The translations under genes and the position numbers were made by a program. A DNA stretch of 64,000 nt from Candidatus Binatia bacterium (lineage in GTDB: Bacteria; Desulfobacterota; Binatia; Bin18), in NCBI GenBank assembly GCA_963664395.2, contig OY761159.2:2784001-2848000 (forward strand), given 5' to 3'. The notes beneath the pieces are model-generated. The model had not been told where the DNA came from, did no database searches, and worked only from the letters and a program-made list of their open reading frames with translations. The first letter of the stretch is position 1. Every line of letters starts with the position of its first letter. Below, one piece after another: positions 3,907 through 33,755 of the stretch.

Positions 3907-3908
3907 CA

Positions 3909-13387: not shown

Positions 13388-14596
13388 TCACCTGACATCA
13401 GTAATCACAAAGTTCTGGATCGTCTCCAGCCACTCCAGCGTGACCGTCTCGCCCGGACTCGGAAAGTCCCCCACAACACAACTCCCAGCCGTGTCCTCCA
13501 AAAACTCCTCCCCCAAGGTCGTCACCCGCACCGTGGCCCGGCCTAACTCCATGTCGTCCACATAGGCTACGACGGTATGGACCCCATCGCCTATCTGGTT
13601 CCAGTTGACTAAGAACCCAAAGCCGTTGTCCGTATCGCCACACATCGCCTCCGTGTCGGCCCGCTCCGTGCCATACGCGGCCTCCTGACTGATCGTTCTC
13701 CCATCTGCGGTTTCTATGACAATTTCGACCACCTCGGCCTCGCACGCCCAGCCCGAGATGACCCCAATCCCACTCTGAAACGAGTTGGGGCTCGGGTTCT
13801 CCATATATCCCACTACTGCCCCCGACGTGCCATTGATTCCCACCGGGGCGGCCCCGCTTGCAATCACGAAATTCTGACTGCTCCGCTGCCACACCAGTGT
13901 CGTCGTCAGGCCCAGCTGCGGAAAGTCTGCCAACCGACACTCCCCGGCCACGCCTCGCACAAACCCTTCGCCCAACGTGGTCACCGTTACGGTCGCTCGA
14001 CCAAACTCTACCCCATCGGCTAGTGCTACAACCGTGTGCCCCCCATCCCCCAACAGACTCCAGTTGAAGAGGACGCTAAAGGCATTGTTCGTGTCCTCAC
14101 ACGCCTCTATGGTGCTCAATAGCTCGGTCCCATACGCCGCCCTGAGCCGCTGCCCATCTATCTCGATCTCCACTCGTTCGATCTCTCCGTTGCCGGTCCG
14201 ACAGACCCAGCCCCAAATCGGTCCAATCCCGCTCTGGAAGGAGGCCGGGCCAGGATTCTCTAGGGACCCCACCACGGTTTCGATCACCACGGTCACCGTC
14301 ACGGTCGCTCGATCAAACTCTACCCCATCGGCCAGTGCCACCACCGTGTGCTCCCCGTCCCCCAACTGATTCCAGTTGAAGGAGAGGCTAAAGCCATTAT
14401 GCGTGCCCTCACACGCCTCTGTGCTCAAGAGCGAGGGTATCATCCCATACGTCGCTATGTACCGCTGCCCGTCTATCTCGATCTCCACGCGCTCGATCTC
14501 TCCGTGGTCGGTCCGACAGACCCAGCCGAAAATGGGTCCGGTCCCGCTCTGGAATGTATCTGGACTCGGGCTCTCCAGGGACCCAACCACTACCAT
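13388..14596 (-). CDS. Protein made only of the shared GxLENPG...GWVC...CGDTDNGF domain (about 3 copies)
   Basis: Three homologous repeats, the first truncated; no signal peptide; lies inside the IS1595-derived cassette. Confidence 0.8.
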   Translation of the reverse strand: MVVVGSLESPSPDTFQSGTGPIFGWVCRTDHGEIERVEIEIDGQRYIATYGMIPSLLSTEACEGTHNGFSLSFNWNQLGDGEHTVVALADGVEFDRATVTVTVVIETVVGSLENPGPASFQSGIGPIWGWVCRTGNGEIERVEIEIDGQRLRAAYGTELLSTIEACEDTNNAFSVLFNWSLLGDGGHTVVALADGVEFGRATVTVTTLGEGFVRGVAGECRLADFPQLGLTTTLVWQRSSQNFVIASGAAPVGINGTSGAVVGYMENPSPNSFQSGIGVISGWACEAEVVEIVIETADGRTISQEAAYGTERADTEAMCGDTDNGFGFLVNWNQIGDGVHTVVAYVDDMELGRATVRVTTLGEEFLEDTAGSCVVGDFPSPGETVTLEWLETIQNFVITDVR

Positions 14597-14709
14597 AAGA
14601 ATAATAAATCGTCCGTAAGGGACCGCCTACAGGAGGAAAGTGACATCATCGGGGGGAACCCCGAGTGCAAAGCCTCCCGTGGCGGCTGTAATGGAACGGA
14701 CCCCTAGGC

Positions 14710-14919
14710 TTACTCCCACTTCTTTGCAGGGATCGGCTTGATTTGTCCACGTTCCACAAGGGCGTCGTGGAACTTTATCAGCCGACCTGTAATGAGGCAA
14801 TTAACCTCGGATCGTGTCATGTGCAGGCTGCTCTCCTTCGGTTCTTCGTGAGGCTCCGTACCGTTGTCAATCCTCTCTTGTACCAAATCTCTCATTTCCT
14901 GTAGCTTTTTTTCTTCCAT
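14710..14919 (-). CDS. Small conserved cassette-end protein
   Basis: MTRSEVNCLITGRLIKFHDALVERGQIKPI; paralog of 47581-47790. Confidence 0.75.
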   Translation of the reverse strand: MEEKKLQEMRDLVQERIDNGTEPHEEPKESSLHMTRSEVNCLITGRLIKFHDALVERGQIKPIPAKKWE

Positions 14920-15860
14920 TCTTTACTCCCTTAGCACTGTAAGCGTCTGGTTCTTGCGGCTTTTTGATAAGAAATAACGCTGCGCTACGGGGGGTGAAAG
15001 ATTTCTTTTGTATTTTGGCCTGCGGGTAAATTGGTATATAATTCCCACCGCGAGGCAGTAGCGGGCTACTTACAGGAATGGTGCGGGGTAGCGCTCACCG
15101 GCGATTGCCGGGACGAGGCATGCATCTTCGCGTGGGGCGATCCGGGTTCTGGCAAATCAACATTTTCCGAGACGCTGTTGGCAGTAGCCGGGACGTTCGG
15201 GACGACCATCGGCAATGGCTCGCCGGTCTCCAAGGCAAACGCCTCGTTGTCGTCAACGAGCTTCCAGAACGCGGCCGGTGGCATTCGGACGATCTCAATC
15301 TGCTGATCGACGGAGGGCTAATCGAGGCTAACCGGATGCGCCAGAACTCCGCCGTCTTTGCATCACGAGCACACCTGCTTATAGCCAGTAACCATCGACC
15401 TTCTGCTCCGGCCGCGTCCGGCCTGTGGCGCCGGCTACGAATAGTTGAATTCCGCAACCGACCGACCGTGGTGGATAGGGGGCTCAAGCGTCGGTTAAAG
15501 GAAGACCTTCCGGGCGTGCTCGCATGGATGCTGCAAGGGCTACGGAGATGGAAGGAGCGTGGTCGGTTGCCAGACGTACCCGCGCTGATGGCGTGAGGCG
15601 TTGAGCGATACCGGCAGGCGGCAGACCCGATCTCGCGGTTCGTGGTTGAACGCACCGAGCCGGACGCCAAGGCGTCGATTGAGGTCGCCACGCTATACAA
15701 TGCCTTTAATTCGTGGTGGCGGGCGGAAGTCGATGACAGGGTGCCAAGCAAGAAAGCGCTTGGGCAGGCTCTCGACGAGATGGGGTGGCTGCCAGCGGTC
15801 GTACGACGGGGGAGTAGGCATCGGGTCGGCCACCGCTTGCGATGTGCAACGTGACAACGC

Positions 15861-16142
15861 GTGTTACGCGTTGTCCGGTATAGACGACTCACGCGCGTGC
15901 GTGAGGGACGGAAACAGGGGAAATACGTAACATACGTTGTCACGTTGCGAATGAACAAACCTAGGGAGGCTGGGCGCGCGGGGCTAGAGCAGTTTTCATG
16001 GTGGTGTAGCGAGGCGATAGCCGGCGTGGCGGAAGTAGTTGGCGCACTCGGCGGGGGAGAAGACCGGGAGGGCATGGCCGATGTCGTTATGGAAGCACTC
16101 GCTGAAAAATACGAGCTAGAGGTTGTAGCGTACGAGCCGTGA
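15861..16142 (+). CDS. Hypothetical protein downstream of primase
   Basis: ORF in the satellite core; start uncertain. Confidence 0.4.
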   Translation: MLRVVRYRRLTRVREGRKQGKYVTYVVTLRMNKPREAGRAGLEQFSWWCSEAIAGVAEVVGALGGGEDREGMADVVMEALAEKYELEVVAYEP

Positions 16143-16184
16143 TCCCTATTCCCCGGCTGGCGAAAGTCAAAAATAACCGGGGAT

Positions 16185-16445
16185 ACGTTGCCCGAAGGAA
16201 TACTCAAAGACTCGCCAGAAAAAGCAACCCAGGTCGCCGAAGAACTAACAAACGTCGCCAATCAGAAAGCACATGCACGACGTATTCATGCCCAAGACCT
16301 GAAAAACATGGGATTGGTCATCAAGGACCTTAAAGAGAACGATGACCTTCAAGAAGCAGTTTTATCCGTTCACCACGCTTTCATGATTGCTCTCTCCAAT
16401 TTCTGTCGGGTGCATGAGTCACTGCGCGTGACACCAGCACTGGAA
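16185..16445 (+). pseudogene. Chimeric remnant: ClpP-like (SDH) protease C-terminus joined to IS1-type transposase tail
   Basis: KAHARRIHAQDLKNMGLVIKDLKENDDLQEAVLSVHHAFMI followed directly by NFCRVHESLRVTPA. Confidence 0.55.
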
Positions 16446-16724
16446 CCAAGTCCCGCCGATTGATCCGTTCCCACAGTTACGGGAGACCCACCGTCTGCAT
16501 AAACTCAACGTCCTGCGCGGCAGTGGACGTATCCGGTAAGGCTGACCAAATGAGGAGAATACTATATTTGACTCACCAAGCGAGACCCGCGCTTCCTTCA
16601 ATGAGGCCGTTCGCTTTGAAATTAAGCGGTTTGGCTTCCAATGCGGACAGGGCCAGCTCCTCAAGATGGCGGGAGCCCTCTACCGTTAGCTGGTAGGTTC
16701 TGAAATTCTCAACTTTGGTCCAGG

Positions 16725-16745
16725 CAAGTACAGTATATAACTCCC
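16725..16745. mobile_element. IS1595-like terminus abutting a REP-like hairpin
   Basis: cagtatataactccc followed by ccttgggaggg...gcagggccggggtggg. Confidence 0.55.
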
Positions 16746-16810
16746 CCTTGGGAGGGATTGTCCGCAGGGTCTGTCCTGAGCGTGTCGCAGGGCCGGGGTG
16801 GGCAGGTCCT

Positions 16811-19800
16811 CTACTCCACGTCCGTAATCACAAAGTTCTGACTATTCTGGTGCCATTCCAGGGTAACGGTCCTGCCCAGCGTCGGAAAATCCTCAACAAT
16901 ACATTCGCCTTCAACGCCCCGTAGAAACTCTTCTCCCAGGGTCGTCACCCGCACCGTGGCCTGGCCTAACTCTACGTCATCCACATAGGCCACGACTTCA
17001 TGCTCCCCATCCCCCAACAGGTTCCAGTTGAACAAGAGGCCGAACCCATTATCCGTATCCCCACACGCCGACTCCGTATCCAGCCGCTCCGTGCCATACG
17101 CCGCCGGCTGTGGCACCCCGTTCAGCGCAATCAGGACCGCGTCCCCCTCACACACTCAGCCAGAGATCACCCCAATGCCGCTCTGAAAGGAGTTGGGGCC
17201 GGGGTTCTCCAGATACCCCACATCAATCGCTCCGGCTCGGTCCGCCCCGGTCGGGGCCGTGCCGCGGGCAATCACAAAATTCTGCTGCCTCTGTTGCCAC
17301 TCCAGCGTCGCCGTCTCGCCGAGCAGGGGGAAGTCCTCCACCACACATTCGCCCGCAACGCCCCGCACGAACTCCTCGCCCAGCGTCGTCACCGTCACCG
17401 TCGTCCGGCTCAACTCCACCCCATCGACCAGGGCCACGACTTCATGCTCCCCGTCGCCCAACAGGTTCCAGTTGAACAGCAAGCCAAAGCCGTTGTCCGT
17501 ATCCCCACAGGTTTCTTCCGTGTCCGACCGCTCGGTCCCATACGCCGCCGCCTGCGGCATCCCGTTCAGCTCTATCTCCACCTCGTCGGCGGCACATACC
17601 CAGCCCGAGATGACGCCGAGGCCACTTTGAAAGGAATCGGCGCCGGGGTTCTCCAGATTGCCGATGAGTTCCGGTTCTTCTTCGGTGGTGGCGGGGCCGC
17701 CGCCCCCGCCGCCCCCGCCCCTACCGCCGGTACTGGTGCCTGTCCCCGTGCCGGTACCCGTCCCACCGCCGGTACTGGTGCCACCACCACCGCCTGGAGG
17801 GGTGGGCGGCGGTTGGGACCCCTGGCTGGTGCCGCTGCACCCCGCGACCGAAGTCTCAGGCGAGACATATGTGTAGCTGCCGTCTGAGTCCGCCTCGATC
17901 CTGTTACCCGCGAGGTCCCGGAGACCCCTGCCCACAGCCACATAGCTGATATGAAGGCTGTGGTCGAAGGACTTCGCGAGCGTCAGCGTCACCTTCGTCC
18001 CGCAGAGCTGGACCCGGTCAAAGACGATAGGCAACCGGTCAGCAGAGGTGGTTACCACAGTGAAGTTTGTCGGCAGGGGCACCCATTCGGGGTCGAGCTC
18101 CTCGTCCCAGGTGGCCACCAGCGTGTAGCCGGCGACCTCCGCTGCGACCAACTTCGGCGGGGTGACGTCCAACCCGGCCTCCTGGCCGGTGACGTTCACG
18201 ACCGGATGGTCGTCAAAAGCAGCAGCGGCATTATATGCCACATCATCGATTCCTCCGCTGCCCGTATAGTTCAGCGTCACCGTGTCGCCCGCCATCACTG
18301 CCGTGTCCAGCGTCAGGATGACCCGCGCGCCGGTGACCCGCGCTTCGGTGACCGTACCCGAGATCCCGGTGAAGCTGGTCAGGTTCAACATCCCCGATGC
18401 CAAATCCTCGTTGTAGTCCAGCGCCAGCATGTTACCGTCCACGGTCGCCCGCACCAGCTGCGGCGGTGTCCCGTCCGTCATCACGGTCGCCTTTGCGACC
18501 GCGCCTTCGTTGTGGGGCGCTGTGTCGTCGTTGATGGCCCGGACCTCGACCGTATAGGGCTGACCAGTCATGAGGTCGTGGGTGGTATGGTTTGTCGTCT
18601 GCGGAGGGACCTCCGTCCAACTCGTCCCGTCCGGTACTGTCGAGCCCTGCGCGTAGCGGTATTCGTAGCGGATAAGATCGGCATAACCGGGAGATTCCGG
18701 CGCAAGCCACTCCAGGTGCAGGGAGGTCTGGCCAGCTACTCCCCGCAAGTACCGCACGGCCGTCGGCGCGCGCCGCTGGGGTGTGGCCGTAATACGGGAC
18801 GTATTCCACGGCCCCTGATCGCTCTGCGGGCGCACGTCGAAGTAATACAGGCGGTTGTATACCGAGAAGTCGGTGATCCCAACCGAGCACGGGCACGTAC
18901 GCCTTCCCAGGGCGGTGTACGGCTTGGAATCGAGCTCGCTCTCCGAGCGGGCGTAGCGGTACTCGTAACTAGTGACCGTCGCGCCGGCGATGTTCGCCGG
19001 CGTGTCCCAACCGAGCGTGATCCCATCGCCCATCCGTTCAGCCGTCAGCTTTCGCACCACGGGGCGGAGGCGGCCGTCCACCTTGTGGTCGGCCTGCGTC
19101 CCGCGTCCAGGGTGGATGAGGTCGGCGTCCACCCCGCCCGCCTTGATCGTCCCGCCGTTCAGTTGCAACCCACGACCGGTGTCGCGCCGGTCGTAGATGA
19201 AGAGGCCGTCGGTGTCCAGGTCGATAGCCGTGACGATGTAGAGCAGGAACAGTTCCGCGCCGCTACTGTCCGCCGCGCTGTACTCGGCCTGGCGCTCCTC
19301 GTCGTCGATGCCGAACACCAGCACCGGCGCTCCGGTGACGGTCACCGCCTCGCTGAACGTCGCAGTGAACCGGATCGTCACGCCGGCGGAGTAGATGTTG
19401 CCCTCCTGGTTCGGCGTGGACATGACGGCCAGCGACTTTACCCACGGCCCGGTCCGGCTGCCGTCCACCTTGTGGCCCGATTGATTGTTTACCGCGGAGT
19501 GGGTGATAAGGGCTGCGGCGCTGTCATCGGCCGCAAGGATGGTCCCGCCATTGAGTTCCAGGGCGTCCTGAGCAATGTTGATCCCGTCGGTGTCGGCGTC
19601 GCCCGCCTGGACCGTGTAGGTGAATTTGAGTGTGCTCGTGTCACTACCGCTCTGGTAGTTGGCGTACTGCATGTTGAGGAGCGGGAGCCGCGGCGTGCCG
19701 GTGACGGTCACCGCCTCGTTGAACGTCACCGTGAACTCAATCACCCCGCCCGCCCCGTAGACGTCTTTGAGCGCCTGACTGTTGTTCGGGGGAATGCTCC

Positions 19801-20437
19801 AGCGTTGCGGCGACGACGTGACTGCGATGCCCTGAGCCACGGGGAAGGTGTTCACGAACCCCTCTATCTTCAGCGTATAGGATTTGTCGTTGCCGATCGT
19901 CCATTGCGTAGGCGTAGCCCCAGTATCATACCAGCGGTGCTTATTGTGGATGGACCAGCCGGTCATGCTCCCGCTGTCCTCGGCGTCGGTTTCGGTGGTA
20001 TCAATCCTTGGCTTGTTGCTCTGGTCGATGGTACTGGTGACGCGGATACTCACGGCGTACGTGGTGCTCGGCGCGACGTTCATTCCGCTGTGCGTGAACG
20101 TCTTGAGACCAATGGCCGAGAAGCCGTCGGTCGGCGCCGTAAACGCGGTGCAGGTCGCGTTCGGCACATCCGTCACACCATCGGCAGTTTGGACGCCGCA
20201 GACCTTCAGCTCGAAAACGTCGGTCACTTTTTCCGTCTCGATCGTGATGGCGGTGATCGAGAAGCCGGCCGTGGACGCGGTGCCCGTTGTGAACGGTTGC
20301 GCCGAGTGGGGGACCCCGATGTCCTGGGAGCCGTCGGGCACCTGATCGACATTGGACACCAGGACGCTGGCTGTCTGCGCCGCCGCCCCGGCCCACAAGA
20401 CGCATATTGCCACAGTCATCACTATCAGTCGCTTCAT
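16811..20437 (-). CDS. Large secreted modular surface protein (Ig-like x2, FN3 x2, SwmB-like x2, G/T linker, shared domain x2) with internal nonsense codon
   Basis: Signal peptide MKRLIVMTVAICVLWAGAAA; FTVTFNEAVTVTGTP repeats; YEYRY FN3 motifs; TPPQLVRATVDG. TGA at 17156-17158 replaces the conserved W of SGWVC and the frame continues to 16811. Confidence 0.85.
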
Positions 20438-20580
20438 GACGTTCACTCCTCTCATAAAGGCCCAATCCGCCCAGGCCGCCCCAGGACCAGCAGGGCACTC
20501 GCGCAGAGCAGAAATCGCTCCCACCTGTCGGCACCTGGATGAAGGCCCCTAGTCTAATGCAATGCCGTGCTCCCCGTCAC

Positions 20581-20594
20581 CTATCAAATGATAG
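20581..20594 (-). promoter_or_regulatory. Palindromic operator CTATCA-AA-TGATAG upstream of surface gene 16811-20437
   Basis: One of four copies; TAGACT -10-like hexamer 24 bp away on the minus strand. Confidence 0.75.
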
Positions 20595-20798
20595 AAAAAT
20601 AACCCTGTTTGGGGATCATGGACGGTCTGTGTCACTTCTCCCCGTAGACGCCGGGAATTTGATCCAAGCGTTCCTCGATGAGGGGTAGGAGCGCTTGAAC
20701 AAAACGGTCTGCCAGGAGACGATCTCTTGCCGGTACCGATAATCCACCGGCCATAAACGTGCTCTGCCTTTGCGGGCATGAGAGGGTGGGCAAGTTCC

Positions 20799-22460: not shown

Positions 22461-22570
22461 GGGAATTATATATCACGTTACCCGTAGGCCACACGTAGCC
22501 TGCATTCTTCCTACACATACAGCTATATAACAAAAATGGGGCTGGGATAGTAATCGACGGATATGGGGGA
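22461..22570. mobile_element. End of IS1595-derived cassette family truncating the surface gene
   Basis: gggaattatatatcacgttacccgtaggccaca...ctatataacaaaaatgggg, homologous to the ends at 12489 and 50524. Confidence 0.85.
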
Positions 22571-25129: not shown

Positions 25130-25209
25130 TCTCCGTTCTTCTCGATGCGCGCCACTCCCCGTTCATCAATGCAGTAGGCCACTTCCCTCATAAAAGTGGA
25201 ATAAGCATC

Positions 25210-25300
25210 CAGGACTCGTAGTTCCTGCAAAACCCCAGGGGCCAACCGAGTATAGACGAAATCATTGGTATAGTGACCAATTACAGACGGACGCTTGACG
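25210..25300 (-). pseudogene. P63C-domain remnant
   Basis: KRPSVIGHYTNDFVYTRLAPGVLQELR. Confidence 0.65.
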
Positions 25301-25442
25301 CCAATTGGACCCCGCCCGGGGGTCATCAGTAAAATAAATTAGTTACATGCTTGCAGACAGTATGTATCGACGACACTCTGGCTGTCCGGAGTCCGAGCCG
25401 GGTGTAGTCAGATGCTGACCCCCCGCTTGGTCTCCGCCTGCG

Positions 25443-28400
25443 CTAGCGGTGTTCTACCTCCACCGCGTTGCTACTGCAGTTGTTGGTGGTATCCGTCTCG
25501 CCCCGCGCCGCGACCACACAAGCCCAGTAGTAGTAGGTCCCCGGCTCTGGCTGAGGATCGGGGAAGGTGTACGTCAACTCACGATAATAAGTCGTATTGG
25601 GCTGGACAACATGAACCCTCCACCCCGAGTCTAACCTCTTGTCGTTGGATGCCGATATCGCCGCATCGCTCGACCGATAGAACCAGAGCCTGGTAGGAAA
25701 TGACTCCCCGGTTCCGTCATTCCGCACGCGCGCGACGAGCGTACCTCCCCCAGCTCTCATCTCGCTGACAACAAGGTCCGATGCCCCCGCTATTGCGGTC
25801 CGCACGGACGTGAACGGCCCCCCGCTCGAACAGGCGATGGTGGAATCCGGATCGCTCGTCGCCGCATCGACGCACGCCCCGTAATACCATTCGCCGGTGG
25901 TCCCGGGCGCCGTCAGCGTAATCGATTCCCGTCTCCAAGCCGACCTGGAAGACGAGAACGCCTCCATCGCGATTGTGCCCACCTCCGTGTCCGATCTCGT
26001 AATCGTCCTGTCCGGCGAGCGGTAGAGGCGCAGCGTCGTCGCCGGCAAAGCCACATACCCAGGGCTCAATGTCACCGACATCGAGAATGTCTCGCCCGGC
26101 GTTACGGTGGCGGACACAACTACCTTCACCCCTACGTTGGCCCAAGGGTTATTTTCGGGTTGCGTCTGCTCTACCCCTACCTGCACGCGTACCCCGCTCG
26201 AACAGTTGTTCGTCGTGTCCCCTTCCTTATGCACCGCGTCCACGCAGGCGCCGTAGTAGTAGGTTCTGACGCTCGTCGGCGCGGTTATCAAGCCCGTCGC
26301 GTGGTAGGTCATCCCGACGAGAAGATCGCGAACCGAATACGTGCCCAGCTCCGTGTCCCACGTCGTGATCGTCGCGTCCGTCGAGCGGTAGAACCGCAGC
26401 GTCGTACGCGTTGCCCAGTAGCCGCCCGCGTTGCGCACCGTCGCCGAGAAGGTGAAGGCCGTTCCGGCGGCCGGGCTGTCGTTGCTCACCCCGGGTGAAA
26501 GCACCACTAGGTCCGGTGGCGTTCCCCGAACCGGACCCGGACCCGGACCCTGACTCGTGATCGGAACCGGAACCGGACCCGCGACCCTGACCGTGACCGT
26601 CACGGCCGGGGAGCAGTTGTTGGTCGTGTCCGACTCATCCGTCACCGCATCGACGCACGCCCCGTAGTAGTACGTGCCGGGGCTCGAGGGCGCCGTCACC
26701 GGAGTCGCCATGCGGGGGCTGCCCGCCGCCGCGAGCGCGCGCACCGCGTCCGTCCCCACCTCCGTGTCCTCCGTCGTGATCGTCGCGTCCGGCGAGCGGT
26801 AGTAGCGCAGCGTCGTGGCCGCCGACTCTCCGTCGCCCGTGTTCGTTACCGTAGCAAACAAGTAATCGCTCTCTCCGGTCTCGGGAGTGTTGTTGGTTAT
26901 CCTCAGCGCCCCTACCACCAGGTCCGGTTGGCTCTGAATTTGCTGCTGCGTTACCAGAACCGTTACCTCTCTAGAGGACGAGCAGTTGTTGGTCGTGTCG
27001 GACTCGTCCGCCACCGCGTCCACGCACGCGCCGTAGTAGTATGCGCCGGGGCTCGAGGGCGCCGTCAGCGCAATCGACTCGCTGCTGGTCCCCGAAGCGG
27101 CCAGCCCCGCCACCGCGGCCGTGCCCACCGCCGTGTCCGTTGCCGTGATCGTCGCGTCCGTTGACCGGTAGAACCGCAGCGTTGTAGCGGCAGCGGCGCC
27201 GTCCCCCTCGTTCCGTACCGTGGCCGACAGCGTGAACGGCGCACCCGCCTCCAGGGTATCCTCGCTCACCGACGGCGCCGTCACCGCCAAGTCCCCGCCC
27301 GCCGGCTCCCGCCGGTTCTGCGGCGCGGTGGGGGTGGACCGCCCGCCCGCCGATGTCCCCCGGCTCCCGCCCGCCGATGTCCCCTGGCTCCCGCCCGCGG
27401 CACGCGCCGCCGGCGGCGCAGTGACCGCGCCCGCCGTATAGTCCACTATCACAAAGTTCTGACTGGTCTGGTGCCATGCCAGCGTGACCGTCTGGGCCAG
27501 AGCCGGGAAGTCCTCCACCACACACTCGCCCTCAGCCCCCCGCACAAACTCCTCGCCCAGGGTCGTCACCCGCACCGTGGCCCGGCCTAACTCCATGTCG
27601 TCCACATAGGCCACGACCTCGTGCTCCCCCTCGCCCAGCAGGTTCCAGTTGAACAACAACCCAAACCCGTTGTCCGTGTCCCCACACGCCTGCAGCGTGT
27701 CCTGCCGCTCCGTGCCATACGCGGCCGGCTGTGGCACCCCGTTCAGCGCAATCAGGACCACATCCCCCTCACACACCCAGCCCGAGATGACCCCAATGCC
27801 ACTCTGAAAGGAGTCGGGGCCCGGATTCTCCAGATACCCCACCCCCGGCACCCCCGCCCGGTTCTCCCCGCTCGGGGCCATGCCGCTGGCGAGGACAAAG
27901 TTCTGCTGCGTCTCCTGCCACACCAGCGCACCCGTCTCGCCCACCATGGGGAAGTCGGGTGCTGCACATGTCCCCGTCACGCCCCGCACAAACTCCGCCC
28001 CCAGGGTGGTGACCGTCACCGTGGCGCGACCCAATTCAACGTCATCCACAAACGCCACGACTTCGTGCTCCCCGTCGCCCAACAGGTTCCAGTTGACCAA
28101 GAGCCCAAAGCCGTTGTCCGTATCCCCACACGCGGCTGCCGTGTCGCGCCGCTCCGTGCCATACCCGGCTTCCTGACTGATCGTTCTCCCATCTGCGGTT
28201 TCTATGACAATTTCGACCGCGTCGGCCGCACATACCCAACCCGAAATCACCCCGATGCCGCTCTGAAACGCATGCAGCCCCGGATTCTCCAGAGAGCCGC
28301 TGGACTCCGCAGACATCTCGCTGCCACCGCCCTTGCGGCCGCTGCTCCCAGAAGCGGTCCCAGTGCCCCCGGTAGTGCCCCCGGTAGTGCCCCCACCAGT

Positions 28401-28883
28401 GCCCCCGGTAGTGCCCCCACCAGTGCCCCCGGTGGCGGCACTGGCCATCGTATCGAGGTCAACATACTTAACCTCAGGCAGACCCTCGATGGCGCGCTGC
28501 TCAGCCTTGAGTTCGGCCAGCGTCAGGGTGTCAGGCACGTGTTCGGCAATGAGCTGCTTGAGGCCGTCCAGCCGGCGCGCGACCGTCCAGCCCGCGCGCT
28601 GCTCCACTGCCGCGGCGGCCTGATCTACGGTGGAGCCCTGCGCTACTGCTATGAGGAGGGTGTCCAGGATCACACAGGCGTCACCATCACGGGCGACGCG
28701 GCCAAAGCCGCGCGTCTCGTCACAGGGGGCCGCGTCGCCCTGGGCTGCGACCGGCGGGCTGGCCGCCAGACCCACGATAAGCAATACCGCGGCCAGGACG
28801 AGGCCAGCTCTCAGTCTTCTACCTTCAGTCTTTCTCATCTCCCACCCTTCCTGTTCTTGCTCGGGCCTTCCCTGCCTCGCCAT
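25443..28883 (-). CDS. Secreted surface protein: N-domain, G/T linker, shared domain x2, then about 5 CARDB-like repeats
   Basis: Signal-like LRAGLVLAAVLLIVGLAASPPVAA; repeats DLxV...ATVRNxG...TTLRFYRSxDATI...YYYGACVDAV...NNCS. Confidence 0.88.
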   Translation of the reverse strand: MARQGRPEQEQEGWEMRKTEGRRLRAGLVLAAVLLIVGLAASPPVAAQGDAAPCDETRGFGRVARDGDACVILDTLLIAVAQGSTVDQAAAAVEQRAGWTVARRLDGLKQLIAEHVPDTLTLAELKAEQRAIEGLPEVKYVDLDTMASAATGGTGGGTTGGTGGGTTGGTTGGTGTASGSSGRKGGGSEMSAESSGSLENPGLHAFQSGIGVISGWVCAADAVEIVIETADGRTISQEAGYGTERRDTAAACGDTDNGFGLLVNWNLLGDGEHEVVAFVDDVELGRATVTVTTLGAEFVRGVTGTCAAPDFPMVGETGALVWQETQQNFVLASGMAPSGENRAGVPGVGYLENPGPDSFQSGIGVISGWVCEGDVVLIALNGVPQPAAYGTERQDTLQACGDTDNGFGLLFNWNLLGEGEHEVVAYVDDMELGRATVRVTTLGEEFVRGAEGECVVEDFPALAQTVTLAWHQTSQNFVIVDYTAGAVTAPPAARAAGGSQGTSAGGSRGTSAGGRSTPTAPQNRREPAGGDLAVTAPSVSEDTLEAGAPFTLSATVRNEGDGAAAATTLRFYRSTDATITATDTAVGTAAVAGLAASGTSSESIALTAPSSPGAYYYGACVDAVADESDTTNNCSSSREVTVLVTQQQIQSQPDLVVGALRITNNTPETGESDYLFATVTNTGDGESAATTLRYYRSPDATITTEDTEVGTDAVRALAAAGSPRMATPVTAPSSPGTYYYGACVDAVTDESDTTNNCSPAVTVTVRVAGPVPVPITSQGPGPGPVRGTPPDLVVLSPGVSNDSPAAGTAFTFSATVRNAGGYWATRTTLRFYRSTDATITTWDTELGTYSVRDLLVGMTYHATGLITAPTSVRTYYYGACVDAVHKEGDTTNNCSSGVRVQVGVEQTQPENNPWANVGVKVVVSATVTPGETFSMSVTLSPGYVALPATTLRLYRSPDRTITRSDTEVGTIAMEAFSSSRSAWRRESITLTAPGTTGEWYYGACVDAATSDPDSTIACSSGGPFTSVRTAIAGASDLVVSEMRAGGGTLVARVRNDGTGESFPTRLWFYRSSDAAISASNDKRLDSGWRVHVVQPNTTYYRELTYTFPDPQPEPGTYYYWACVVAARGETDTTNNCSSNAVEVEHR
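28362..28433. repeat. 12-bp tandem repeat encoding GGTT/GGTG linker
   Basis: gtgcccccggta / gtgcccccacca units. Confidence 0.8.
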
Positions 28884-28981
28884 CTTCTCTTGCCGGGCAG
28901 TGGCACGGCGGCGGGGGGGATAGTGCGGTTACCGACCCCCAGAGAAGGTCCCTTATAATTCAATGCCGTAGCCCCTGTCCC

Positions 28982-28995
28982 CTATCAAATGGTAG
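28982..28995 (-). promoter_or_regulatory. Operator copy upstream of surface gene 25443-28883
   Basis: ctatcaaatggtag; TATAAG 24 bp away. Confidence 0.72.
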
Positions 28996-29050
28996 AAAAA
29001 TGACCCCGCCCGGGCCTGCGCATGTCACCGGGCCGGGATGAGCAGAGCCG

Positions 29051-32000
29051 CTACTCCACGTCCGTAATCACAAAGTTCTGACTGGTCTGCTGCCATTCCA
29101 GCGTGACGGTCTGGGCCAGGCCGGGGAAGTCCTCGATGACACACTCCCCCTCGACCCCGCGTAGAAACTCTTCTCCCAGGGTCGTCACCCGCACCGTGGC
29201 CCGGCCTAACTCTACCCCATCCACGAACGCTACGACTTCATGCTCCCCCTCCCCCAATAGATTCCAGTTGAACAAGAGGCCAAAGCCGTTGTCCGTATCC
29301 CCACACGCTTCCGCGGTATCCACCCGCTCCGTGCCATACGCTGCCACGTGGCGCCTGACCGCTCCCCCCTCGGTCGTGATCTCGATCTCCACCTCGTCTC
29401 CCTCGCACACCCAGCCCGACAGCACCCCGATGCCACTCTGAAACGAGTTGGGGCCGGGGTTCTCCAGATAGCCCACCTCGGCTGACCCGGCCCGGTTCAT
29501 TCCTGTCGGGGCCGGACCGGCTCGGATCGCAAAGTTCTGACTGTTCTGCTGCCAGACTAAGCGCACCCGCTCGCCTGCATGTGGAAAGTCTTCGACTAGA
29601 CACTCGCCCGCGGCGGCGCGGAGAAACTCCTCCCCGAAGGTCGTCACGGTCACCATGGCCCGTCCGAGTTCGACCCCGTCAACGCGGGCCACGACCTCAT
29701 GCTCGCCATCGCCCAGCAGGTTCCAGTTGAACAGGAGGCCAAAGCCATTGTCCGTGTCCCCACACACCCCGGCTGTGTCTAACCGCTCCGTCCCATACGC
29801 CGCCTCCTGCGGGGTCCCGTTCAACTGGATCTCGACCGTCTCCGCCTCGCAGACCCACCCGGAGAGAACCCCGATGCCACTCTGAAACGAATCGGCGCCG
29901 GGGTTCTCTAAGAACCCTACCACCAGATACGTCTCCACGGTGTACGTCCCGGTCTGCCGCCCGTTGCCCGCCACGGCCACCACCACCAGCCCCGCTGCCA
30001 CCGGCACGCTCAGCCGAAAGTTCCGCCGGGCGCCCCCGCTGTCCGCCATCCCCAACTCGACATCGTTCAGCCACACAGTCCCCACCGTATCGGTCGAGCC
30101 CGTGGTCTCCACCACCAACACGCCGGCGTGGGGCACGCTGAGCGTGAAGTAGTCCACATCGTCCGCACTGTTGGCTTGCCCCGGCGTGGAGGACGTCCAC
30201 GGCGCGGTGCCGCCAAGGGAGACCGCGGTCGCCTGCCCCGGGCTGTCCCCGTGCCGGTCCTGGGGGCCGCTGCCCCCGCCACCCCCGCCCGTACCGCCGG
30301 TGTTACCCGGTGGGGGCGGCGGGGGCGGGCGGTCGTCATCCAGAATCGTACCAAGCGCGCCATCCGTACCGACATTGACTATTCTGACCCCGAACGGCAG
30401 GCTGTTTGTCGTTACGAACAAGAGCAAGGTCTCGTTGGGCTCAATCGCCGTATCGTCTGTTGTTTGCACCGTAATCGTGCGGGTGCTCTCGCCCGCCGGG
30501 ATCGTTACGGACCCGGACTGGTTCGCCGGATAGTCCACACCGGCCGTCGCCGTTCCAACCCGGATATCGCTCATATGCCAGTCAAGGATTATGTCCGCCG
30601 GCACCGGCGCCGACAACTGCACTGTGAAGCGGATGGGCGTGCCCTCCGCCGCTGCGCTGTTATTGACGGTGATCTCGACGAACTCGACGGCGACCTCCAC
30701 CTCGTACAGCCCGGTTTGCTGGTCCGTGGCCCCCCGGACCTTCAGGTAATACACACCCGCCTCAAGGCGTCGTTGGAGCAGAAAATCCTTGCTGGCGAAC
30801 GACACGGCCTCGCTGGTCGCAATCGACATGCTATTGCTGTCCAACAGCTCGCCGACGAGCCGGAGTTGGGGAGCAAGAGTCAAAGCAGCAATACCGCGAA
30901 TGACCAGGTCGGTCGCGGCGGGCAGTTCAATTCTGAAGTAATCGACGTCGCCGGCGGGAGCGATCAGGCCCCCTGCGGTATCGCGGTGCACCTGGGGGGT
31001 GATGGTCAACTCCGCGGCATCGGCCGGGCCTGCCGTATCCTGCCCCGTCCCGGTTTTCAGAGAATAGAATCCTGTCGCACCCGCATGCCCACTGACCTTG
31101 ATGGAGTATATTCCTGCGGGGAGCGAGCGGGCGAGGAAAAAATTATTCCGGCCGATCACGTCATAATTATTTTCCGCAATCAGGTGGCCATTGCTGTCCA
31201 GCACCTGCCCGACGGTATCAAGCCCACCGGTGGTGCGGATGGTGATATCGGTCGTGGCGGACAGGTCGATCGTGAAGTAATCGACGTCGGAGCTGGAGGT
31301 GATGGCTCCTTTCACCGTGCGATTCAGCGGCAGGTCCGCTGCCGTGGCCCGGTCGTTGCCGTGGTCAGGCGTCGTCTCGGTTTGCAGCGTATAGAATCCT
31401 GTCGCGCTCCCGCGAGCGCTGACCTTGAGGTAGTACGTCGTGCCTGCGGCAAGCGCGTAGACGAGGGAAAAATCTTTCGGATTGCGGAAGAAATCAATAT
31501 TGCCGTCGTTGTTTTGCGTCAGCACATTGCCATTGCTGTCCAATAACTGCCCCACGGTATCAATTCCACTATAGGTGCGGACATGGATCTCGGTCGCGGC
31601 GGCCGGTTCGATCGTGAAGTAATCGACGTCGGAGCCGGAGCTGATATATCCCAGCACGGTACTATCCAGCGGCAGGGACGCCGCGGTGGGCCGGTCGTCG
31701 CCGTGGTCTGCGGTTCTTGTCGGCGTGACGTCGGACCACGCCCCGGCGCCCGTGGCGTTGTGCGCCCGCACCTGTACCCCGTACCACCAATCGTCCAGGA
31801 GTCCGCTGAGCGTATATTCCAGCACGCCGGCGTCGACCGTCACCGTCCCAGCGTAGTTGTAAGTACTGCTCTGGTAGTGGAGCTCGTAGGCGCTGATGGC
31901 CGAGCCGCCGGTGTCGGAGGGGGCATCCCAAATGATGTGCAGCGAGCCGCTGCCGGGGGTCACGCTCGTGATGGTTGGTGGGGCGGGCGTCTGGGCCCAG

Positions 32001-32056
32001 GCGGCACCGGACCCCAGCAGCAGCCCTAGCAACACCCACACAGCCATCCGCCCCAT
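29051..32056 (-). CDS. Secreted surface protein: FN3, PPC-like repeats, Calx-beta, linker, PPC-like, shared domain x2
   Basis: Signal MGRMAVWVLLGLLLGSGAAWA; DHGxxRxTA...DVDYFTI repeats; GTATAGVDY...DDTAIEPNETL...GTILDDD. Confidence 0.88.
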   Translation of the reverse strand: MGRMAVWVLLGLLLGSGAAWAQTPAPPTITSVTPGSGSLHIIWDAPSDTGGSAISAYELHYQSSTYNYAGTVTVDAGVLEYTLSGLLDDWWYGVQVRAHNATGAGAWSDVTPTRTADHGDDRPTAASLPLDSTVLGYISSGSDVDYFTIEPAAATEIHVRTYSGIDTVGQLLDSNGNVLTQNNDGNIDFFRNPKDFSLVYALAAGTTYYLKVSARGSATGFYTLQTETTPDHGNDRATAADLPLNRTVKGAITSSSDVDYFTIDLSATTDITIRTTGGLDTVGQVLDSNGHLIAENNYDVIGRNNFFLARSLPAGIYSIKVSGHAGATGFYSLKTGTGQDTAGPADAAELTITPQVHRDTAGGLIAPAGDVDYFRIELPAATDLVIRGIAALTLAPQLRLVGELLDSNSMSIATSEAVSFASKDFLLQRRLEAGVYYLKVRGATDQQTGLYEVEVAVEFVEITVNNSAAAEGTPIRFTVQLSAPVPADIILDWHMSDIRVGTATAGVDYPANQSGSVTIPAGESTRTITVQTTDDTAIEPNETLLLFVTTNSLPFGVRIVNVGTDGALGTILDDDRPPPPPPPGNTGGTGGGGGGSGPQDRHGDSPGQATAVSLGGTAPWTSSTPGQANSADDVDYFTLSVPHAGVLVVETTGSTDTVGTVWLNDVELGMADSGGARRNFRLSVPVAAGLVVVAVAGNGRQTGTYTVETYLVVGFLENPGADSFQSGIGVLSGWVCEAETVEIQLNGTPQEAAYGTERLDTAGVCGDTDNGFGLLFNWNLLGDGEHEVVARVDGVELGRAMVTVTTFGEEFLRAAAGECLVEDFPHAGERVRLVWQQNSQNFAIRAGPAPTGMNRAGSAEVGYLENPGPNSFQSGIGVLSGWVCEGDEVEIEITTEGGAVRRHVAAYGTERVDTAEACGDTDNGFGLLFNWNLLGEGEHEVVAFVDGVELGRATVRVTTLGEEFLRGVEGECVIEDFPGLAQTVTLEWQQTSQNFVITDVE

Positions 32057-32127
32057 GTTTCCACCAGATACGAAACGCGATGCATAAGATAACTCTTCTC
32101 TCCTGCTCCCCATTACTCCTCCTCCAC

Positions 32128-32330: not shown

Positions 32331-32351
32331 AAAAATAACCCTGTCCGGGGG

Positions 32352-33488
32352 TCAGGCGAACGCGGCGACCGACAGCACCAGCCGCACCAAGTCCACCTGC
32401 CCGGCGAGGCCCTGCTTGTGGTAGATTTGATGCAGGTACCACCGGACCGAGCGTTCCGTATACTCCAGTGCCACGGCAATCTCGCGTACGGTCTGGCCTT
32501 CCGCCACCCAGGCCGCGATCTGGCTCTCCACCGGTGTCAGCCCCAGGGTCACGGCCACTAGGGCAGGGTCGATGTGGGACACCAGCCCCCGCTCGACCAG
32601 CAGCACCTGGGCAGCCACGCGCCCCGCCCCAAAGTCCATCTGCCGGACCCCCACCGGTTTGACGTGCACCACGAACGGTGGCAGCGCGGACGCGCGGTGG
32701 AGCCGCATTGACCCACTGACGGCGGGCGCACTGGAGGTCGGCAGTGCGGCGGCGACCAGCCGCTCCAGGCAGGCATGGTCAGCCGGCACGCGGGCGGCCA
32801 GCACGCCGCCCCGGTCCATCAGCCCGTCGCCCTGCCGCAGGATGGCACGGGCATGGTCATTGGCCTCTACAATCCGCCCGCTCCGGTCCAAGCAGATGAC
32901 CCCGATCCGAGGGGTGTCGAGCAGGGCGGTCATGGACGCGCCCAGTGCTTCGGCTTTGGCCAGCGCCTGCCGGATGCGGACAAATTGTCGGATATGGGGC
33001 AAAAGACGTTCGATCAGCGCGAGCTGCGAGGACGCCCAGCCGTTCGGGGAGACGGGGTCAAGGGGGTGCCAGGCGATGTGGGAGCCGTCCGGCTCGCCCA
33101 GGCGGACATTCAAGCCATCCTGGGCATTCCCCCGGAGAAACGCCTCGTTGTAGGTCGGCGAGGTCCTCAACTCTTGGGGGGTGTACAGGGCGGGGGTGTG
33201 CATCACGCGGCTGTCGGGCAGTTGCCGGAAACGCGGTATGCTTTCGTTGATAGGGTAGTAGACTTCCAGGTACTCGCGCTCCCAGTCCTCGCGGCGCTCC
33301 CCCCGGAAGTAGAGCCCAACGTAGAGGACCCGGCCATCCTCCTCCAGGCTATCACGAATCATCAGGGCATTGCCCACCATGCCGCAGGCATCATCAATCA
33401 GCGCCGAGGTGGCCGGCCATAAGGTATCGTCAAGCATGGCGTCGTATAACGACGCCAGGATCCGCTCAAACGCGTCTTGGTCACTCAT
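32352..33488 (-). CDS. PAS-containing LuxR-type HTH transcriptional regulator
   Basis: GVICLDRSGRIVEANDHARAIL (PAS); LTPVESQIAAWVAEGQTVREIA...SVRWYLHQIYHK (LuxR HTH). Confidence 0.9.
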   Translation of the reverse strand: MSDQDAFERILASLYDAMLDDTLWPATSALIDDACGMVGNALMIRDSLEEDGRVLYVGLYFRGERREDWEREYLEVYYPINESIPRFRQLPDSRVMHTPALYTPQELRTSPTYNEAFLRGNAQDGLNVRLGEPDGSHIAWHPLDPVSPNGWASSQLALIERLLPHIRQFVRIRQALAKAEALGASMTALLDTPRIGVICLDRSGRIVEANDHARAILRQGDGLMDRGGVLAARVPADHACLERLVAAALPTSSAPAVSGSMRLHRASALPPFVVHVKPVGVRQMDFGAGRVAAQVLLVERGLVSHIDPALVAVTLGLTPVESQIAAWVAEGQTVREIAVALEYTERSVRWYLHQIYHKQGLAGQVDLVRLVLSVAAFA

Positions 33489-33659
33489 GCCGGTGCGTCC
33501 TTGTCCGGTTCTTCCAGTGAGGCGCAGTCATGGGATCTGGACAGGAAAAGAAGAGCTGCTCTCGAACGGAGCGCCCCCATATGCCTTCAGCGCTTCACAA
33601 GAGAAGTTCATATACATGCTGTTCGTATGCAGATACCAAATCCTGCGCGCCCCTGTCTC

Positions 33660-33673
33660 CTATCAAATGATAG
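33660..33673 (-). promoter_or_regulatory. Operator copy upstream of the LuxR gene (autoregulation candidate)
   Basis: ctatcaaatgatag; TATCTG 24 bp away. Confidence 0.75.
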
Positions 33674-33689
33674 AAAAATGATTCCGGCC

Positions 33690-33755
33690 GGGGGGCAGAC
33701 GAGCACGGCGACCGACCGCACCAGTCGCACCACGTCCCCCTGCCCAGAGAGACCC
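33690..33755 (-). pseudogene. 3'-end remnant of a second LuxR paralog
   Basis: GLSGQGDVVRLVRSVA versus GLAGQVDLVRLVLSVA at the end of 32352-33488, in the same position relative to the operator. Confidence 0.7.

Follow-up and report, generated by a model that had tools for sequence, protein, structure and literature searches.

A paired Ig-like module in a partly decayed cluster of modular proteins on a tRNA-integrated island of a Binatia bacterium

The window, a 64,000-nucleotide stretch of contig OY761159.2 from a Candidatus Binatia bacterium, contains an array of five neighbouring minus-strand genes (g1 to g5) and one remnant that share a unit of 131-136 amino acids. The preliminary description had reported these genes, their 3' ends and the unit, and all were borne out by a motif scan and profile search, which revealed 11 unit copies. 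Upon alignment of the window copies, identity to the first copy was 55-85% with 25 invariant columns, and DNA repeat families were found to connect the unit-coding places in the window DNA as well. Gene g1 (13388-14596) is a fragment with one Ig-only half unit, two full units and no other domain; its whole protein matched Pfam Big_7 at 34.9 bits. Gene g2 (16811-20524, or to 20437 in another listing) encodes a signal peptide, choice_anch_R, fn3, SWM_repeat, a Gly/Thr linker and a C-terminal pair of units, and contains an in-frame stop codon, TGA at 17156-17158, where the GWVC motif otherwise has its invariant W. Gene g3 (20799-22472) encodes fn3, He_PIG, a Gly/Pro linker and a C-terminal pair of two units, the second with an internal deletion; its frame is open from 22472, with the earliest possible start at 22043. 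Both g1 and g3 were judged to be 5'-truncated because they lack a start codon and a signal peptide. Only g4 and g5 are intact. Gene g4 (25443-28883, or to 28838 in another listing) encodes a signal peptide, an N-terminal domain of ~150 residues, a Gly/Thr linker, two units at residues 196-479 (27447-28298), a further linker and then CARDB repeats. Gene g5 (29051-32113) encodes a signal peptide, fn3, PPC-like repeats, Calx-beta, a Pro/Gly linker, a PPC-like domain and a C-terminal pair of two units (29066-29917); its last 290 residues, the region searched, were 100% identical to a database protein of 1020 residues (P0156). The remnant, previously placed near 32128, proved real and spans 32113-32250 on the minus strand, where it encodes the final 45 residues (the tail) of a unit and ends in a stop codon overlapping the g5 ATG (TAATG); a D3 repeat copy lies at 32119-32245.

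Hydrophobic N-termini ending in AQ were recognised by eye in g2, g4 and g5. Pfam matches in the window genes (fn3, SWM_repeat, He_PIG/Cadherin_5, CARDB, PPC and Calx-beta) agreed with the FN3, SwmB-like, cadherin-like, CARDB, PPC-like and Calx-beta modules first proposed. The sole piece common to the non-pair parts was a 39-residue fn3 stretch, which upholds the view that a constant unit is joined to unrelated modules. The Gly/Pro/Thr linker said to join them is immediately next to the pair in g2, g3 and g4; in g5, one PPC domain separates the linker from the pair downstream.

The array sits in a 28-kb island within tRNA-Thr that is bordered by 48-bp repeats. The integration site is a tRNA-Thr(CGT) gene (37122-37197, minus strand), whose 3' 48 nucleotides (37124-37171) are repeated at 8961-9008 as the distal att-like repeat at the left island border (48/48 identical, E 1e-22, in a blastn search of the window with the tRNA region). 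The island carries a plus-strand tyrosine integrase (9179-10372) that matched Phage_integrase at 95.5 bits, Arm-DNA-bind_3 and the phrog_1 integrase (E 2.8e-60). It also carries a split phage/island-type DNA primase, with an N-terminal fragment (11361-12677, plus strand; phrog_1156, profile positions 30-152 of 855) and a C-terminal fragment of the same type (15042-15596, plus strand; phrog_1156 positions 601-734, DUF5906). A repeated element of ~115 nt (family D14) was present on the minus strand at the primase gene break (12480-12600; minus-strand end TGGTATATAAT) and exactly at the g3 truncation point (22472-22600), with a 41-nt core copy at 22967-23007. Additionally, the island cargo includes an ankyrin-repeat protein (35834-36388, minus strand; Ank and Ank_2 families). 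The five genes and the remnant form a cluster of paralogues, partly decayed, on this tRNA-integrated island.

The array had been credited with its own regulator and operators, and we found a LuxR-type gene and four palindromes. The LuxR-family regulator of 378 residues (32352-33488, minus strand) has a C-terminal GerE helix-turn-helix (35.9 bits against a cut-off of 23.5), a weak BagY/FevT-type match and, in its N-terminal region, only a weak PAS_8 match. The four copies of the 14-bp palindrome, with 0-1 mismatch each, lie upstream of g2, g4, g5 and luxR; a scan at up to 2 mismatches gave 6 matches against ~1.04 expected, and none of 100 shuffles reached 6. All four copies belong to minus-strand cassettes. 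Upstream of g2, the cassette (D10; 20543-20630) runs from a weak hairpin with a T-run through CTATCAAATGATAG (20581-20594) to GGTGAC, and that upstream of g4 (28946-29028) runs from a terminator-like hairpin with a T-run (29016-29002) through CTACCATTTGATAG (28982-28995, one mismatch) to GGGGACA. Downstream of luxR, the cassette that precedes the remnant and g5 (32276-32366) similarly contains a terminator-like hairpin (32354-32336), CTATCATCTGATAG (32317-32330) and GGGGACA, and the one upstream of luxR (33619-33709) contains CTATCATTTGATAG (33660-33673). A 3'-end remnant of a second luxR copy (33695-33750, minus strand; GQGDVVRLVRSVAVLV versus GQVDLVRLVLSVAAFA) indicates that the luxR-cassette unit was once duplicated in tandem. 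In genome OZ244620.1, a LuxR protein with 66% identity differs in its recognition helix, and the equivalent place upstream of two unit genes is taken by another palindrome, CTAGTAAnnTTACTAG. As judged from these sequences, the island regulator probably binds the 14-bp palindrome as a dimer. When 76 related loci (10 kb on either side of one match each) were compared, a LuxR homologue was close to a unit gene in just 4, and LuxR control is therefore local.

Profile searches of Pfam and NCBIfam revealed that the unit is modelled in neither. The earlier statement that it lacks a named family stands to that extent, but the first ~95 residues form an Ig domain of distant kinship to Big_7 (PF17957); Big_7 rows also fall within the units of Competibacteraceae relatives. 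The unit is a two-part extracytoplasmic domain in which a divergent, disulfide-bearing Big_7-like Ig sandwich is followed by a 40-residue three-strand tail. Extra Ig-only copies without the tail were found in g1 and in two database proteins (P0001 and P0266). Across 103 units, about half of the residues are conserved and two Cys per unit are invariant; of the structure anticipated earlier, the Ig-like fold and these two Cys were recovered, whereas the third Cys is kept within the window only. Foldseek matched the unit to Ig/filamin-type folds; the fold searches gave generic Ig domains and no functional analogue (TM up to 0.46 for a single unit against the PDB, and up to 0.28 for the pair model against a viral library), and a PDB sequence search with the unit gave no match. 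The AlphaFold model of the pair (pLDDT 93.1, pTM 0.85) showed three strands in both tails. In contrast, the tail in the one-unit model had no secondary structure and its 10-residue block means dropped from 91-98 to 74, 76, 73 and 51, in a comparison of two runs whose alignments differed. These models suggest that the two units and their conserved linker of ~17 residues (15-26, median 17) form one rigid module, and that the tails may require the second unit to fold. The module is real and has had no family name so far.

The unit profile matched 2749 clusters at 50% identity with E up to 1e-3, and 1051 with E up to 1e-30. Exactly two units were present in 145 of the top 150 representatives, where the module was C-terminal in 125, within 60 residues of the N-terminus after the signal peptide in 17 and internal in 7. 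A role as a C-terminal secretion signal was rejected given these N-terminal and internal positions. As many as 105 of the 125 C-terminal modules stop exactly 4 residues past the unit, most commonly with TDVE. Among ORFs in the genome loci, 45 had two units and 31 had one, so that pairing is normal, as first described; it is not obligatory, since one-unit proteins are common (31/96 ORFs), and one locus (L022) contained three one-unit genes in tandem. Sixty-five of the 76 loci were titled Binatia or Binatota. Most contained a single unit gene, and about a dozen had two or three ORFs with units, of which some were frameshifted or antisense.

The partner domains tabulated in 45 sampled representatives were fn3 (15), LRR (10), cadherin (8), peptidases (6), cadherin-like (5) and SRCR (4), and in Competibacteraceae relatives the pair was found on PhoPQ_related, trypsin-like, MdoG and PASTA proteins. 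Its presence on PASTA proteins and on MdoG, according to Pfam a periplasmic protein of glucan biosynthesis, would fit a periplasmic site. The pair takes the position typical of an anchor: no known sorting domain was found in the 45 representatives; choice_anch_R, present in g2, occurred in three of them. The available text of one source describes choice-of-anchor A domain proteins as surface proteins with alternative anchors (10.1101/2023.03.06.531300), and the surface-anchor reading would pass from the A to the R family by name only. The export genes expected to co-occur did not recur: within 10 kb of the unit genes in the 76 loci there was no recurring receptor, secretion or anchoring gene, and the recurrent neighbours were metabolic paralogues (luciferase-like monooxygenase, amidohydrolase, SDR and CoA-transferase).

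The unit copies are mosaic, as a PHI test on 118 informative sites confirmed (p up to 0.0005). Identity between g3 and g5 was 85-94% at alignment columns 390-630 compared with 58-67% at columns 300-360, and 30 of 96 units had the partner unit of the same protein as their closest relative. This mosaic signal, the position of promoterless 5'-truncated copies next to expressed-type copies with operators, and the location of all copies on one strand within 20 kb could be taken to indicate programmed diversification or phase variation, in which g1, g3 and the remnant serve as silent cassettes that donate to expressed genes. We consider this highly improbable, and the diversification system of the preliminary description was not upheld. 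What the copies share at the DNA level codes for the constant part and not for the variable payloads, so that conversion would make them more alike instead of diversifying them; besides the island integrase, there is neither an invertase nor a reverse transcriptase, nor any further dedicated recombinase. The plain nonsense mutation in g2, the split primase and the luxR remnant point to decay, and most related loci have a single unit gene.

Several explanations of the pair itself were weighed. It may be a lectin-like or matrix-binding module that concentrates payloads on outside targets such as host or biofilm glycans and matrix proteins, much like the carbohydrate-binding module of an enzyme. 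The pair indeed occurs on hydrolases and proteases as well as adhesion repeats, and at either protein end, as carbohydrate-binding modules likewise do; its conserved acidic and aromatic motifs (CGDTDNGF and NWNxLGDGxH) may resemble Ca- or sugar-binding loops, and titles in the literature cite Big_7 as accessory to chitinases. This explanation is nevertheless doubtful: Pfam gave no carbohydrate-binding or lectin family match, the top PDB fold matches were generic Ig/filamin domains, and 70-78% identity on hundreds of payloads, in lineages of very different habitats, fits a self-encoded partner better. A purely structural role, as a rigid stalk or (pseudo)dimerisation domain that sets payload valency with no specific partner, is unlikely. 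Ig domains that act as spacers tend to differ in copy number and sequence, while here 145 of 150 proteins have exactly two units, 105 of 125 keep the terminal placement together with the precise 4-residue ending, and about half of the residues are conserved. Such a role would nonetheless account for the generic Ig-like sandwich, the confident and rigid two-unit model, a tail predicted to be structured only with the second unit present, the one-unit proteins, at times in tandem, and the interchangeability of first- and second-position units.

The predominance of C-terminal modules with a conserved ending, the absence of other known sorting signals in the 45 representatives and the co-occurrence of choice_anch_R are consistent with a sorting signal read by dedicated outer-membrane export or attachment machinery, recognised as type IX secretion C-terminal domains are. 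However, the 17 modules right after the signal peptide and the 7 internal ones, with g4 as the window example, are incompatible with a strictly C-terminal signal, and to our knowledge known sorting domains are far smaller than the 290-residue pair. TIGR04183 and Por_Secre_tail matched weakly, below cut-off, in the PPC region of g5 outside the unit, and export genes do not recur near unit genes in the 76 loci. We regard this role as quite improbable.

Overall, the observations of the preliminary description were confirmed and its interpretation was partly supported. An anchoring or docking role of the pair is plausible, and we tentatively favour a constant handle that holds varied Sec-exported payloads on a common receptor of the producer's envelope or matrix, a logic like that of dockerin, SLH and cell-wall-binding modules. 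Evidence on location comes only from Sec-type signal peptides judged by eye, and the high conservation among paralogues could stem from gene conversion alone, without a shared partner. On the island, three gene promoters and the regulator's own promoter bear the palindrome, the probable site of a LuxR dimer. The homologous pair-coding DNA undergoes gene conversion and illegitimate rearrangement; as a result, g4 and g5 alone are intact, g2 is a nonsense mutant, g1 and g3 have lost their 5' ends, and of a further copy the tail remains. In the Binatia-like lineage, the module stands beside very different payload domains in thousands of proteins with signal peptides; if the handle reading holds, the pair would dock on one common receptor in the producer's own envelope or matrix and may thereby hold eukaryote-like adhesion repeats, proteases and hydrolases there.

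A motif scan, together with a profile derived from the copies, identified 11 units of 131–136 aa in five minus-strand genes (g1–g5, 13388..32113), which confirmed the observation of five such genes and a remnant with a shared unit in the preliminary description. The first gene, g1 (13388–14596, minus strand), contained one Ig-only half unit and two full units, and its start fell inside a unit; g2, g3, g4 and g5 contained two units apiece, hereafter the pair or module. A twelfth piece, the remnant (32113–32250, minus strand), consisted of the final 45 aa of a unit plus a stop codon that overlapped the g5 ATG. The window copies showed 55–85% identity to the first copy with 25 invariant columns, and the DNA repeat families of the window coincided with the unit-coding places. 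Only g4 and g5 were intact. In the second unit of g2, the TGG codon for the invariant Trp of GWVC was replaced by a single in-frame TGA at 17156–17158, which is a nonsense mutation unless it stems from a sequencing error; decoding of TGA as Trp in the source organism was rejected, as the codon occurred once, at an invariant Trp position, through a single TGG-to-TGA change. The g3 frame was open from 22472, lacked a start codon ahead of 22043 and encoded no signal peptide. The g4 pair occupied residues 196–479 of 1146. Over the 290 C-terminal residues that were searched, g5 was identical to a 1020-aa database protein on a 4.8-Mb contig; if two other listed proteins share that contig, the module has further copies in that genome beyond the window.

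No Pfam or NCBIfam model covered the unit, and the lone row was Big_7 (PF17957), which matched the whole three-copy g1 protein at 34.9 bits versus a gathering cut-off of 24.1. Of 103 single units taken from the window and from related genomes, none matched Big_7 at E ≤ 0.01. Among nine hand-picked Competibacteraceae relatives, five of which were selected for an existing Big_7 listing, five showed Big_7 at 25.7–29.6 bits within their units, and the other four gave 23.7, 20.5 or nothing. In the Protein Atlas, the pair adjoined unnamed clusters, some with Big_7-bearing members, and its recognition score of 1315 was under the level typical of known families. The pair profile found no sequence relative in the PDB at E ≤ 1.

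The AlphaFold model of one unit revealed a confident Ig-like sandwich over residues 1–97, with 10-residue block means of 91–98 and strands throughout over residues 1–100. Its best PDB fold matches in Foldseek were filamin and Ig domains with TM ≤ 0.46, and searches with the pair (PDB and a viral library) and one unit (PDB) returned generic Ig-like matches only. The last 40 aa had no secondary structure in the one-unit model (block means of 74, 76, 73 and 51), and in the two-unit model (pLDDT 93.1, pTM 0.85) both tails formed three strands with block means of 92–96. These models, which were run with different alignments, suggest that the tails may require a second unit. Two copies of one unit predicted as a complex scored 0.31 versus a mark of 0.42, which counts neither for nor against pairing. 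Tail-less, Ig-only extra copies were found in g1 and in two database proteins (P0001 and P0266). Each of the 103 units carried two invariant Cys residues, and a third Cys was a feature of the window. Thus the unit resembles Big_7 in being an Ig-like sandwich with weak sequence similarity to it, and differs from it in the 40-aa three-strand tail, the invariant Cys pair, the fixed tandem with a conserved 17-aa linker and the conserved TDVE ending of the proteins; the Big_7 profile reaches at most the first ~95 aa. Judged by these sequence matches, the unit is probably a distant relation of Big_7, and the family would be an unmodelled, very large branch of Big_7-related Ig-like domains.

Searching 1.84 billion representatives with the unit profile revealed 2749 clusters (50% identity) at E ≤ 1e-3, of which 1051 reached E ≤ 1e-30. 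Exactly two units were present in 145 of the 150 best representatives, a sample biased towards two-unit proteins, with an inter-unit linker of 15–26 aa (median 17). The module was C-terminal in 125 of these 150, started in the first 60 aa in 17, was internal in seven and stood alone in one, which was g1 itself. In 105 of the 125 C-terminal cases, the protein ended exactly four residues past the unit, most often with TDVE. A crude signal-peptide heuristic flagged 69 of the 150 and missed obvious cases; some unflagged sequences start inside a domain and may be fragments. We also collected 76 genome loci, each extending 10 kb to either side of one unit match, whose ORFs comprised 45 with two full units, 31 with one unit and 20 partial copies. 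Record titles assigned 65 loci to Binatia or Binatota and five, all from one assembly, to Thermodesulfobacteriota; the remainder came from Competibacter (2), Sedimenticola, Phycisphaerales and two other proteobacterial MAGs. One complete genome, OZ244620.1, supplied 10 of the 76. At one locus (L022, 4886–10432), three adjacent genes each had a single C-terminal unit of ~140 aa and no pair, and their products are candidates for unit pairing between molecules. Within the literature on Binatota and sponge symbionts, eukaryotic-like proteins, Big_7/PF17957 and choice-of-anchor domains, we did not find the tandem module described, and a description may still exist.

The other domains of the unit proteins, or payloads, were highly diverse. 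Pfam matched the payload domains previously named for the window, NCBIfam placed choice_anch_R at the g2 N-terminus, and outside the pair only one 39-aa fn3 stretch was common to the five window proteins. In 45 sampled representatives, the partner domains included fn3 (15), LRR (10), cadherin (8), cadherin-like (5), SRCR (4) and Calx-beta (2); six had peptidases (reprolysin-like, S8, M4) and seven had no family. Competibacteraceae pairs sat on PhoPQ_related, trypsin-like, MdoG and PASTA proteins. The proposed reading of a constant module with a variable payload was therefore supported, as the pair is found on many unrelated proteins and the window proteins share so little beyond it. Eukaryote-like repeat proteins are described as the most cited genomic signature of sponge-associated bacteria, sponge microbiomes are enriched in classes of them that include LRR, fn3, cadherin, NHL and Calx-beta, and Binatia genomes have been recovered from sponges (PMC9531527). 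The payload classes are identical to those of the sponge-bacterial proteins (LRR, fn3, cadherin, ankyrin, NHL, Calx-beta), whereas the portions of that account concerned with these proteins cover the payload classes and mention no shared tandem module (PMC9531527). Unlike the sponge proteins, the module also occurs on enzymes of Competibacteraceae from other habitats. We know of no clear account of how eukaryote-like repeat proteins of sponge bacteria are exported, displayed or retained.

A tRNA-integrated genomic island carries the array as cargo. The island (8961–37171, ~28.2 kb) contained the whole array and was bordered on both sides by a 48-bp exact repeat, as the 3' 48 nt of tRNA-Thr(CGT) at 37124–37171 recurred exactly at 8961–9008. 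A phage/island-type primase was present as an N-terminal fragment (11361–12677) and a C-terminal fragment (15042–15596), covering PHROG profile positions 30–152 and 601–734, with g1 and a small ORF between them. Inserted DNA, g1 included, interrupts the primase, and the element has therefore probably lost its autonomy. The integrase, the tRNA 3' direct repeat and the primase fragments resemble those of tRNA-integrated islands with a P4-type primase, whereas here the primase is split and the tyrosine integrase adjoins the distal repeat, far from the intact tRNA. An element of ~115 nt was found at the primase break (12480–12600) and at the g3 truncation point (22472–22600), and a 41-nt copy of its core lay at 22967–23007. 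Its minus-strand end, TGGTATATAAT, resembles an extended -10 box, and the element could represent the terminus of a small mobile element or a promoter facing outwards; the ORFs flanking the two copies (12943–13293 and 23043–23489) were not homologous. The island also carried the gene of an ankyrin-repeat protein (35834–36388), a further eukaryote-like repeat gene that accompanies the array, with an internal DNA repeat at 102-nt spacing (36213–36252 and 36315–36354). Elsewhere in the window, a low-GC region (0.48–0.50) at 48067–53812 encoded a fusion of a DNA methylase with an HNH nuclease, contained two ORFs that matched BrxC/BrxD-type ATPases, and is likely a defence island separate from the array. 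A 210-aa protein with two RRM_1 RNA-recognition motifs (E 3e-40) was encoded at 43346–43978.

The regulator and putative operators claimed for the array were both present, as a LuxR-family gene and four palindrome cassettes. The LuxR-family ORF (32352–33488) matched GerE (PF00196) at residues 317–370 with 35.9 bits versus a cut-off of 23.5, and SdiA and PA1136-type NCBIfam rows reached 15–16 bits versus cut-offs of 215–350. No Pfam row indicated an autoinducer-binding domain, and the N-terminal 300 aa gave only a weak PAS_8 match (E 0.0088). The cassettes, of 65–90 nt, lay upstream of g2, g4, the remnant with g5, and luxR itself. Each comprised, in order, a T-run with a small GC hairpin (two of the four were flagged as terminator-like), the 14-bp palindrome CTATCAnnTGATAG with 0–1 mismatch, and GGGGACA, which reads GGTGAC upstream of g2. 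With ≤2 mismatches allowed, the palindrome had six matches in the window versus 1.04 expected, and none of 100 shuffles attained six. A profile of the operator cassette found the four window copies alone and none in the 76 loci. A conserved TA lay, by eye, 25–26 nt past each palindrome. A simple sigma-70 scan found no promoter at the cassettes and a total no higher than in shuffles; on this basis, an activator-dependent promoter is suggested. A GerE match above cut-off and a 14-bp inverted repeat upstream of luxR and three genes are shared with LuxR regulators that use palindromic operators, whereas the island regulator lacks the autoinducer-binding domain of the quorum-sensing LuxR proteins, which are acyl-homoserine-lactone receptors. 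Upstream of the luxR cassette, ~50 nt (33695–33750) corresponded to the 3' end of a second luxR copy, about 17 codons, so the luxR-cassette unit was evidently duplicated in tandem.

A homologue of the regulator occurred near a unit gene at four of the 76 loci. The OZ244620.1 homologue shared 66% identity with the island regulator and differed from it at many positions of the recognition helix. A different palindrome, CTAGTAAnnTTACTAG, followed by GGGTCA, lay upstream of two unit genes in that genome (at loci L001 and L015), where regulator, T-run, palindrome and GGGTCA were laid out as in the window (4935–4965 and 6675–6690 of L001; 1917–1932 of L015). The regulator gene there had a longer palindrome with a related half-site upstream. 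This single case of joint change in helix and palindrome supports, short of proof, the predicted link between regulator and operator. At another locus (L049), two convergent LuxR-type regulator copies, one of them frameshifted, were present at 1592–4120, and the unit gene about 3 kb from them was frameshifted between its two units.

The five coding regions of the pair were 67–79% identical overall, with a nearest relative that shifted along the alignment. In particular, g3 and g5 were 85–94% identical over columns 390–630 and 58–67% at columns 300–360, and g2 and g4 were 90–93% identical at columns 480–570. Mosaic recombination among the copies, a check named in the preliminary description, was borne out by the PHI test (p ≤ 0.0005; 118 informative sites, three window sizes, 2000 permutations each). 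In 48 pairs from many genomes, the nearest relative was the partner unit of the same protein for 30 of 96 units. The shifting nearest relatives and the same-protein partners therefore point to conversion within and between genes. The idea that first and second units are two ancient types was rejected, as units did not group by position and the best tree split separated only 61 of the 96. A programmed variation system would be one explanation of such mosaicism, and a diversification system had indeed been proposed. The homogenised part, though, is the constant pair, we saw no direct evidence of payload swapping within the window, and a search for a reverse transcriptase, invertase or shufflon recombinase (Pfam on 33 window ORFs, PHROGs on 12 island ORFs) found only the island integrase. 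With conversion homogenising the constant part and no dedicated enzyme among the window ORFs, that proposal was not supported.

Dockerins in cellulosomes, SLH domains and other wall-binding modules are constant modules carried by many unrelated secreted proteins of one organism. The pair resembles them by functional analogy only, being constant on otherwise unrelated secreted proteins and placed at either end, whereas it is unrelated to them in fold and size; no dockerin, SLH or LysM-type Pfam row was obtained for the window proteins, single units or the 45 representatives. We tentatively read the module as a constant docking or retention handle, an assignment that we hold at somewhat below even confidence. 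It is favoured by the strong conservation of one module across many unrelated proteins with signal peptides, by its placement at either protein end, by the finding of no other known anchor in the 45 representatives and by its repeated co-occurrence with choice_anch_R, which accompanied the pair in g2 and in three of the 45. Choice-of-anchor A domains are described on surface proteins that use alternative anchors (10.1101/2023.03.06.531300), and choice_anch_R may, by extension of the name alone, likewise mark such proteins. Against a docking handle stands the neighbourhood of the unit genes. When all ORFs of at least 150 aa in the 76 loci were clustered and 15 clusters were scanned with Pfam, the two largest overlapped unit genes on the opposite strand and were read as antisense shadows, the others were metabolic enzymes or had no Pfam match (4/15), and no recurrent export gene and no cohesin-like or other receptor was identified. 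The generic fold matches and the common one-unit forms also count against it. Rival readings are a module that binds ligands of host or matrix and a structural or dimerising stalk. The fusions to MdoG, periplasmic by Pfam naming, likewise weigh against a docking handle, as they would also suit a periplasmic location.

A sorting signal is a further rival, since a beta-sandwich at the C-terminus, the position of most of the best 150 modules, recalls the type IX secretion C-terminal domain (Por_Secre_tail, TIGR04183). The module differs from that domain in being about four times larger and in not being strictly C-terminal, with 24 of the 150 N-terminal or internal. TIGR04183 and PF18962 did not match the unit; their rows of 17.4 and 16.6 bits (cut-offs 23 and 27) fell at g5 residues 325–377, in the PPC region, and the 45 representatives had none. 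To our knowledge, Binatia and Competibacteraceae are not lineages known for type IX secretion. The NCBIfam models for PEP-CTERM, LPXTG, GlyGly-CTERM and MYXO-CTERM gave no above-cut-off row in the window proteins, where the sole anchor-type row was a weak MXAN_2561_fam match on g5 (17.2 bits versus a cut-off of 150), and sorting-signal models gave no row on the 45 representatives at E ≤ 1e-4. The proteins that end in TDVE have no hydrophobic tail.

A broader form of the docking reading, which we regard as rather unlikely, is that the unit is the handle of a previously unrecognised docking system. Binatia and Competibacteraceae would hang a large, interchangeable secretome on one envelope or matrix receptor, among it the eukaryote-like proteins with LRR, cadherin, fn3 and SRCR domains that are believed to mediate life within animal hosts; mobile islands with their own LuxR switch would spread and reshuffle the cassettes; and two tails, of a pair or of two one-unit proteins, would interlock into a binding-competent module. 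The travel of unit genes on a tRNA-integrated island with a private regulator is a plausible route of spread. The unit family merits its own Pfam or NCBIfam model. One unnamed module on thousands of eukaryote-like repeat proteins (2749 clusters) offers a concrete experimental handle: a single antibody, pull-down bait or reporter fusion could locate the whole protein class, and a single profile could annotate it.
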